Shown piece by piece: positions 26,377-27,326 of a DNA stretch of 64,000 nucleotides (positions are counted from its first letter, which is position 1; each line of letters opens with the position of its first letter). The position numbers and the translations under genes were made by a program. The notes under the pieces were generated by a model. The model worked only from the letters and a program-made list of their open reading frames with translations. It was not told where the DNA came from and made no database searches. Source of the DNA: Deltaproteobacteria bacterium (lineage in GTDB: Bacteria; Desulfobacterota; GWC2-55-46; DRQE01); the NCBI GenBank assembly GCA_015492495.1, contig WGEY01000088.1, positions 2,959 to 66,958 of the forward strand, read 5' to 3'.

Positions 26377-26916
26377 GCGGCTGCTGCACACGGTCCGTCA
26401 CGACCCGTGGCCGATCTTTCCCAGCGACTTGGCGGGATGTCTCCCGAAGGCGGAGACCTTCAAGGAGCCTTTCCGCCTTGCGAGCACACCGCCGGCGGTT
26501 ATCTCGCGCATGTTGCGTCCCTTGCATCCCGTGTCGTGACGGTCAAGGGGGGTAACCTGCCGTTTTCCGCCTTCTTGTACCCTTGGCTGCCGAACAGCGT
26601 ATAGCGGTGCCGCACCTTGAGAGATCCCCCTCGGCGGCCACGGGAGACAATACCGCCTGCCTGCGCTACGAGACTTTAAAGCTTATACAGCTTGTTTATG
26701 CAGAGTGGAATACAACCGCTTAAGCCTGGTCTCCCACAAGCAAGGGATGCTAAGCCAACTTAATTCTTCCAAGCCGGTCCGTGCAAAGAGGGATTCTTCT
26801 CTGCCTCGGCACGCGTTTTTTTAGATTTCACCGCGCCGACGATGCAAAAAGCAATTCCAGGCTCCTGCCATCGGGTTCTACCCGCTTCCGGCACCCTCAG
26901 AGGGTTCATATTTGTC

Positions 26917-26946
26917 TTGACCCTGCTTGACCGTTTTTCCTATAAT
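26917..26946 (+). promoter_or_regulatory. consensus sigma70 promoter (TTGACC - 18 nt - TATAAT), with a second TTGACC copy 10 bp downstream
   Basis: Located in a 950-bp gap with no ORF. It is about 380 nt upstream of the first ORF of the TPR/ExbBD/TonB operon. Confidence 0.45.
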
Positions 26947-27326
26947 ATTAAATTGTTGGCCTCTTCATTTTCGCTTACATACGGTATAGGGACAGAGTAA
27001 GGACACGGTGCATGTGAGCCTCGGGTCTCGCACCTGAAGATCCCGTGCCGGTTGCAGCAGGAAGCTCCAGCGCGTCCGGAACTCTGCCCGGTTGTCTCAT
27101 AAAGTATAGATCGGCGATACCGTGCCGCAATGCATCTTCATGGAGGAGTCTCGGGACCCCGCCTGTCGATATGTTTCGAAAAAATAATATACCGGAGCTG
27201 TTGAAAAGGTGTTTCTCGGCGGTCATTGCTAAGGGTAAGACGGCGCGGCGGTCCCTGAAGAACGAGGAGCCGCCTGCCGCATACGGCCCGTATCACAGGC
27301 GACAAGCCGTGGGCAAGAGGCCCGCT

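Follow-up and report, generated by a model that had tools for sequence, protein, structure and literature searches.

A 950-bp interval (positions 26377-27326) in a 64,000-nt stretch of contig WGEY01000088.1 from a Deltaproteobacteria bacterium, referred to below as the window, is very probably a composite intergenic region. It comprises the putative untranslated tail and terminator of the upstream gene, followed by a conserved promoter and a leader of about 375 nt. The interval is located between the gene of a 177-aa protein with a Cys-rich tail (25843-26376) and the open reading frame (ORF) 27045-27950. Judged by gene content, it is the junction of a lineage-specific gene block (about 8.6 kb) and a conserved nine-gene envelope operon.

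In the explanation favored here, which as a whole is given a probability of roughly 0.55, four steps are combined. (1) Positions 26377-26822 would be the untranslated tail of the Cys-rich gene, and a hairpin with a run of seven U would most likely terminate its transcript. (2) About 90 nt further on, the operon would be transcribed from its own sigma-70-type promoter, with a predicted transcription start near 26953. (3) In the transcript, an inherited leader of about 374 nt would precede the first gene (TTG 27327). (4) In the lineage of the window, the 5' end of this leader, which is single-stranded, would pair with the ribosome-binding site (RBS) and occlude it over a long range. Such an occlusion would control initiation of translation of the first gene, and possibly mRNA stability, in competition with a local hairpin that exposes the RBS. 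Since the 5' end is predicted to pair with the RBS, control of translation initiation was taken as the most likely mechanism, with low-to-moderate confidence. Steps 1 to 3 are based on sequence and comparative evidence, and step 4 was inferred from a thermodynamic prediction. The elements concerned are:

26377-26778, plus strand: putative untranslated 3' tail of the upstream 177-aa Cys-rich gene; non-coding, lineage-specific
26779-26822, plus strand: intrinsic-terminator-like element, seen in the sequence as an interrupted hairpin (CGTGC...GCACGCG) plus T7 (U7 in the RNA)
26893-26905, plus strand: small hairpin ACCCT-CAG-AGGGT, then T-rich sequence, just 5' of the promoter; terminator-like by scan, weak (-5.5 kcal/mol)
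26911-26946, plus strand: sigma-70-type promoter with T-rich TTTGTC, -35 hexamer TTGACC (26917-26922), 18-nt spacer and -10 hexamer TATAAT (26941-26946); found by scan and comparison
26953-27326, plus strand: predicted 5' leader of the operon transcript, with a length of about 374 nt provided that transcription starts about 7 nt past the -10 hexamer and TTG 27327 initiates
27327-27950, plus strand: first operon gene, predicted small exported protein without Pfam or NCBIfam family

Promoter and composition of the interval

The promoter TTGACC-18-TATAAT at 26917-26946 was found exactly as it had been described in an earlier reading of this DNA (below, the sequence-only reading). It agrees with the consensus at 11 of 12 positions. 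A search of the 64 kb for TTGACC-N17/18-TATAAT gave a single exact match, compared to none in 100 shuffles. At the related loci of the same clade (clade B: L012, L013 and the L017 group), exactly one such sequence was present in each case, upstream of the operon and on the operon strand, with TTTTGTC before it. The hexamers were identical while the spacer sequences differed, which is the classic signature of a functional promoter. On this comparison of sequences, the promoter is real and conserved in four deep lineages. A similarly placed TTGCCT-17-TATAAT is present in the more distant clade A. No sigma-54 site was found in the gap. The start of transcription near 26953 was predicted from the distance to the -10 hexamer (about 7 nt).

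That the gap lacks genes, as had been claimed, was borne out by several methods. Its ORFs are mechanical only and do not exceed 83 aa, and ten of them had no match in Pfam. A codon-usage scan, trained on the confident genes of the window, detected no coding frame in the gap; the frame of the downstream gene became clearly coding only from about 27400, with scores of zero or below before that position. The same locus was compared in six metagenome-assembled contigs (L001-L005 and L016; 98.4-99.97% identity), resulting in a set of seven genomes including the window. Indels of 1, 1, 2, 4 and 1 bp were located at 26480, 26546, 26815, 27011 and 27116, all inside the gap, and those at 26480, 26546, 27011 and 27116 break reading frames. 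The clearly delimited flanking genes contained no indels; three indel columns were found in the upstream stretch 24930-25625, the start of which is uncertain. The public annotations of these contigs place no gene in 26377-27200. A missed protein-coding gene, which the sequence-only reading had itself named as the finding that would speak against it, was not detected by codon usage, indels or Pfam: an intact frame combined with coding-like codon usage or a family match was nowhere found, with 27171-27326 (as an N-terminal extension) as the sole possible exception.

Only short repeats at chance level were present within the gap. An origin from a mobile element or repeat was rejected, as no copy of the gap was found elsewhere in the window or in the relatives, and plasmids and phages showed no similarity. 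The interval had been called unusual for a tightly packed region. Its 950 bp are indeed non-coding, but there are other sizeable gaps in the window, e.g. 18200-18709.

Among the seven genomes, variable sites (substitutions only) amounted to 3.2% in 26377-26778 and 2.9% in the leader. In the flanking genes, the corresponding values were 3.9% (fourfold-degenerate sites) and 1.2% (first plus second codon positions). Most of the gap evolves about neutrally. The promoter (0 of 42 sites variable) and the block 27117-27210 (1 of 94) varied less, although not significantly so.

The upstream half, 26377-26916, was scanned for promoter-like sites on both strands without result, and nothing similar to it was detected in relatives, elsewhere in the window, or among plasmids and phages. 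Folding of 26377-26830 was somewhat better than that of shuffles (z-score -2.6; 1/100). For the hairpin at 26779-26822, a folding energy of -13.3 kcal/mol was calculated, which does not stand out from shuffles (z -1.5). It was not called by a simple terminator scan, because its stem is interrupted. The element was retained in the variants, with a single-nucleotide polymorphism (SNP) in the loop at 26800 and a TT insertion in L016 that extends the U run (U9). Like known intrinsic terminators, it consists of a G+C-containing hairpin directly followed by seven U and is located downstream of a gene; it differs from them in that it has a stem broken by internal loops, lies 400 nt past the stop codon and escapes the simple scan. 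It probably ends the transcript of the upstream gene, as a predicted terminator. In the small hairpin just 5' of the promoter (26893-26905), a SNP at 26900 falls within the loop.

The sequence-only reading had described the 500 bp upstream of the promoter as rich in hairpins and had connected them with control of the TonB operon. The first statement holds in part. The z-score of the region and the terminator-like element agree with it, but the listed hairpin GGTGCCGCACC at 26606-26616 is a palindrome with a loop too small for an RNA hairpin, and the element at 26779-26822 did not exceed shuffles; a further listed hairpin is AAGCTTATACAGCTT at 26679-26693. The connection with the operon was abandoned, since the region appears to be the 3' tail of an upstream lineage-specific block that is absent from all relatives. 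Of the features expected of a small RNA (sRNA) gene, namely a promoter and a terminator of its own around a short conserved transcript, only the terminator-like element was found in 26377-26916. The segment is read here as the 3' end of the lineage-specific block, consisting of a 3' untranslated region (UTR) and terminators that would insulate the operon from the inserted block.

Leader and ribosome-binding site

Between the -10 hexamer and the start codon lie 380 nt in the window, 381 nt in L016, 305 nt in L012, 364 nt in L013 and 331-366 nt in L017/L018. The long leader claimed earlier (about 375 nt before TTG 27327) was thus recovered in all four lineages, and this range of 305-381 nt in deep lineages marks it as a conserved trait. 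Promoter and long leader together are, by this comparison, inherited features of clade B, with the long leader known from four independent lineages only. Depending on the true start codon, the length of the leader in the window would be 218-374 nt. In the L017 group, too, the leader is free of genes in the public annotation. The elements within the leader are:

26958-26965, plus strand: anti-Shine-Dalgarno-like segment GGCCUCUU (also written GGCCTCTT) close to the leader's 5' end; complementary to 27315-27322 at all 8 nt
27117-27210, plus strand: block with residual similarity across lineages, containing GAGTCT, a CU-rich CCCCGCC/CCTCC motif, and the AT-rich palindrome TTTCGAAA followed by an A-run
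27315-27329, plus strand: RBS AAGAGG (27315-27320) and likeliest start codon TTG (27327-27329) of the first operon gene, spacing 6 nt

The start codon was assigned by comparison. Homologues of the first gene product start 2-10 residues before the hydrophobic core of the signal sequence. In the window no canonical start codon is located close to this core, and the nearest is TTG 27327. The alternative in-frame starts ATG 27171 and TTG 27201 (the frame is open from 27045) both lack a well-placed Shine-Dalgarno sequence. Translation from GTG 27045 is excluded by the 1-bp insertion at 27116 in L016.

The segment GGCCUCUU (26958-26965) is perfectly complementary to the RBS region AAGAGGCC (27315-27322), and for both the window and L016, pairing of the two was predicted with a probability of 0.95-0.99. 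Averaged over the Shine-Dalgarno bases, the probability of being paired was 0.94, compared to 0.31 ± 0.18 in 150 shuffled leaders, one of which reached this value; the 8-mer itself was present in none of the 150. Otherwise, the first 48 nt of the leader lack structure (z +1.44). In a local hairpin that competes with this pairing, GUGGGC-AAGAG-GCCCGC, the RBS would be placed in the loop. Long bacterial 5' UTRs can occlude an RBS through a distal complementary segment, as in the rpoS leader of Escherichia coli and in the 5'-3' 'fbi' pairing of hok mRNA. The window resembles these cases in having a leader of several hundred nucleotides, a distal CU-rich segment complementary to the Shine-Dalgarno region (8 of 8 bp) and a competing local hairpin. 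It differs from them in that the pairing is predicted only and not conserved in the other lineages, and no trans-acting activator (sRNA or protein) is known. In the lineage of L017, inspection of the sequence revealed complementarity (9-11 bp) of the leader 5' end to a segment 14 nt upstream of the RBS in both alleles. Sequestration of the RBS as a mechanism shared by the lineages was rejected, as it was significant in the lineage of the window only. As modeled here, the pairing is a lineage-specific hint and no property of the family. That RBS occlusion in particular is what the leader does appears doubtful, and a regulatory role of any kind may be assumed only tentatively. The two 8-nt segments 26958-26965 and 27315-27322 offer a concrete, mutable pair for a cheap experimental test.

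Known regulatory RNAs were searched for with Rfam 15 (4227 models). Only a tRNA elsewhere in the window reached the gathering threshold. With 26200-27600 and the leaders of L012 and L013, a cutoff of E ≤ 10 gave only implausible sub-threshold matches (eukaryotic long non-coding RNA or microRNA models, a CRISPR repeat, bacterial sRNAs), and with the leaders of L017, L018 and L006 no match was obtained at E ≤ 5. No terminator-like site was present on the plus strand of 26953-27326. The suggestion of a riboswitch or RNA thermometer accordingly found no credible Rfam match and no consensus structure, and that of an attenuator no terminator in the leader of the window. With such families the leader has in common its position, with a strong promoter before it and the first operon gene after it; it differs by the lack of a model match, in the window as in the leaders of the relatives, and of a consensus structure. 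It was read as a long 5' UTR rather than a ligand-sensing riboswitch because sequence and fold are poorly conserved. As the gap holds no hidden gene or known riboswitch, the annotation of the region can stay unchanged.

Comparison of the leaders gave weak similarity. Pairwise local alignments scored above shuffles for window-L012 (z 3.6), window-L013 (z 2.7) and L012-L013 (z 4.8); those with L017 scored 2.4 (L012), 1.9 (L013) and -0.5 (window). By eye, a series of collinear blocks was recognized: purine-rich GGGA..AGGGG, GCAA-AG, ATAAAG-GTG, GAGTCT, the CCTCC motif, and the AT-rich palindrome plus A-run. RNAalifold, applied to MAFFT alignments of the conserved core and of the 5' domain, returned 0 consensus pairs, from four lineages only and with a poor alignment. 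A hairpin presenting the ATAAAG-GTG block (constrained-fold test) was not better than shuffled flanks. In a leave-one-out test, nhmmer profiles gave no significant match to the left-out lineage; the best E-value was 0.099, at the right place in L017. The profile of all lineages recovered its own members only, with no match in the sister clade. On these results, a novel structured RNA is unlikely, the power to detect covariation being low with four lineages.

Inspection of the sequences revealed no reading frame shared by the leaders of the different lineages. A conserved small ORF in the leader was rejected, as the ORFs in L013 (6280-6570), L017 (582-782) and the window use different frames relative to the shared blocks. 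The ORF in L013 encodes 96 aa across the leader and ends in a stop codon that shares bases with the start codon of the first operon gene (ATGA); it is probably fortuitous.

In the L017 lineage, two leader alleles coexist that differ at 30% of columns, mostly by indels, in the first 110 nt, with adjacent genes differing by 0.1-0.4%. The central block (equivalent to 27117-27210) is invariant between both alleles. This segment (L017 471-580) is a local hotspot of variation when compared to L018, L024, L025 and L026, with the alleles differing by 8-9-nt indels and SNPs; L025 looks like a recombinant of both alleles. At about 40-100 of L006, a G+C-rich hairpin GCCGTGTCCCTCGCC...GGCGGGGGGCGGC followed by ATGATTTTTT was seen by eye to be attenuator-like; it is weaker in L013, and the window has no equivalent.

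Two further candidates were rejected. An element like the RfaH 'ops' sequence, GGCGATACCGTG at about 27111-27122, matches GGCGGTAGCGTG at 10 of 12 positions (by eye) and is not conserved in the relatives. A cyclic di-GMP riboswitch was considered with regard to the PilZ neighbor of the operon in L012, L013 and L017, and had no match in Rfam.

Alternative explanations

Several points weigh against the explanation favored here. Transcription start, terminator and leader are predicted features. Most of the leader is unconstrained, as its variation within the lineage is near the neutral rate, and the whole leader folds no better than shuffles (z -1.16). RBS sequestration in L012, L013 and L017 was no greater than in shuffles (fractions 0.13, 0.24 and 0.97), with different predicted partners. 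Significance (p about 0.007) was reached in one of the four lineages tested, with TTG 27327 assumed as the start, and helices across 350 nt are poorly predicted by minimum-free-energy methods. In addition, the frame of the first gene extends without a stop codon back to 27117 or 27045 (a chance of about 3-7%, our estimate), and four of six SNPs in 27171-27326 are synonymous; part of the 'leader' may be translated.

The main rival is a passive spacer, in which the promoter is real and the leader is tolerated non-coding sequence from the ancestor of the clade, with no regulatory role. This is possible, though less than probable. The near-neutral variation (2.9% compared to 3.9% at fourfold-degenerate sites), the tolerated indels, the divergence of the L017 alleles, the z-score of the leader, the lack of a consensus structure and the failure of the leave-one-out profile all agree with it. 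A mere spacer would not be expected, however, to keep a length of 305-381 nt in four lineages with saturated divergence, with only about 110 nt in the sister clade, and the residual similarity blocks (z 2.7-4.8) and an RBS complementarity above chance speak against it as well. Partial coding, with a start of the first gene at ATG 27171 or TTG 27201, a basic N-terminal extension of 42-52 aa and a true leader of about 220-250 nt, is unlikely. The frame open from 27045, the lack of indels in 27171-27326 in seven genomes, the proportion of synonymous SNPs (p about 0.04, our binomial estimate), the lack of a canonical start near the signal-peptide core and one public annotation that calls a 249-aa form (P0001) favor it, but the codon-usage score remains at or below zero until about 27400. 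Neither start has a well-spaced Shine-Dalgarno sequence, compared to AAGAGG at 6 nt before TTG 27327; the extension has no counterpart in homologues of the other lineages, and the L016 insertion excludes anything upstream of 27116.

Control at the DNA level, with the weakly conserved blocks including the AT-rich palindrome as operators for a transcription factor or nucleoid protein, was considered improbable. What is conserved in the blocks is the primary sequence, without consensus pairing, and inspection of the sequences revealed palindromes at equivalent positions (TTTCGAAA, TTTTATAAAA, AAAATTTT and ATTTTT-TAG-AAAAAT). Each lineage nevertheless has its own palindrome sequence, which would be unusual if a single conserved regulator were involved; the promoter lies about 230 nt upstream of the sites, the operon has no linked regulator gene, and the statistics for the blocks are weak. 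An independent sRNA, either derived from the 3' UTR and ending at 26822 or a short transcript from the conserved promoter, is still less probable. The 445-nt tail with its terminator-like end and a z-score of -2.6 would suit the former, and a strong promoter far from its gene the latter. On the other side, 26377-26916 has no promoter-like site, varies at a neutral rate with indels and is absent from all relatives, and the leader has neither a terminator nor a match in Rfam. Least probable was a new riboswitch class or other structured cis-regulatory RNA common to four lineages. It would account for a long leader of conserved length in which collinear weak blocks are separated by hairpins of variable length, but 0 pairs were returned by RNAalifold for both halves, the hairpin of the best block did not exceed shuffles, the leave-one-out profile failed, and no Rfam match was found at E ≤ 5-10 in any lineage. 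The near-neutral evolution points in the same direction, with low power from four lineages.

For the leader of the favored explanation, a broader role may be imagined, although it is rather improbable: an unrecognized cis-regulatory RNA, responsive to a protein or ligand through short single-stranded motifs between variable hairpins, which would have been kept in four deep Thermodesulfobacteriota-like lineages and would control a Glt-like TPR/ExbBD/TonB envelope machine. The motifs in question are the purine-rich block, GCAA-AG, AUAAAG-GUG and the CCUCC anti-Shine-Dalgarno motif. A long leader across deep lineages is a reasonable first place to seek regulation of this machine. If the leader is regulatory, it would provide a first handle on when these uncultivated bacteria deploy the system.

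The envelope operon and the upstream gene block

The operon consists of nine tightly packed genes. Downstream of the small exported protein they are, by Pfam and all on the plus strand:

to 29808, plus strand: TPR protein
29819-32656, plus strand: TPR protein
32614-33588, plus strand: TPR protein
next, plus strand: ORF of about 96 aa
33897-34535, plus strand: ExbB
34516-35010, plus strand: ExbD
35015-35509, plus strand: ExbD
35502-36908, plus strand: TonB_C protein

The TPR proteins comprise 643, 945 and 324 aa, and the TonB_C protein 468 aa. The same gene order was found in L007, L008, L012 and L013. The family of the small protein is very rare, with 12 clusters among 5.8 billion proteins, and is divided into two clades. 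In clade A the proteins end with ...NFGVGGR, and the operon is divergent from lexA-dinB, with an intergenic region of 200-300 bp and a leader of about 110 nt. Clade B comprises the window, L012, L013 together with L006, and the group of L017; the small proteins of these relatives are 43-51% identical to that of the window. A PilZ-domain gene is located divergently upstream of the operon in L012, L013 and L017 (confirmed by Pfam on the L017 contig, by sequence similarity for L012 and L013).

The closest known system, as judged by domain content alone, is the Agl/Glt 'core complex', in which GltD, GltE and GltC are TPR proteins, GltG is TonB-like and AglR/Q/S correspond to ExbB/ExbD/ExbD, with one extra gene in addition (Luciano et al., 2011, PMC3169522). 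In the window, too, three TPR proteins, one ExbB-type and two ExbD-type proteins and a TonB_C protein are encoded in a single cluster, together with one extra gene without a Myxococcus homologue. In contrast, no FHA domain was detected in the TonB-like protein of the window. No leader or promoter is described for the Agl/Glt cluster in that publication (PMC3169522). By this analogy, the operon may not be a TonB system for iron uptake. It represents a rare envelope operon with a well-supported promoter and a gene content resembling the Agl/Glt core complex.

Upstream, the minus strand of the window carries lexA (17571-18200) and dinB (15899-17185), and the LexA protein is 54% identical to that of L007. 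Between lexA/dinB and the operon promoter lie about 8.6 kb of plus-strand ORFs, several of them Cys-rich, which had no family match and are absent from every relative compared. The 177-aa protein next to the gap likewise has no Pfam or NCBIfam family. The block proper (18330-26376, about 8 kb) contains about 11 plus-strand ORFs without Pfam or NCBIfam match and is inserted between lexA and the operon promoter relative to clade A. Four of its proteins are strikingly Cys- or His-rich (22744-23064, 24440-24904, about 24930-25625, and 25843-26376), and two of these end in the common motif ARVRWCE(A/V)(V/F)(C/S)C. A 78-aa ORF at 23961-24197 corresponds only to the N-terminal Rossmann part of an FAD-dependent oxidoreductase (matches to FAD_binding_3, Pyr_redox_2 and similar families); it looks like a gene remnant and is omitted by the public gene calls.

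A palindrome GGTAAC-N4-GTTA(T/C)C is present upstream of lexA in the window (18301-18316, GGTAAC-N4-GTTATC), in L007 (about 2623-2640) and in L008 (about 9180-9197), and probably represents the group's LexA box. The distance between this palindrome and the operon promoter is only about 110 nt in clade A. A 97-aa ORF is located between dinB and lexA in the window (17127-17420, minus strand), and in L007 an 80-aa gene is called at the same position.

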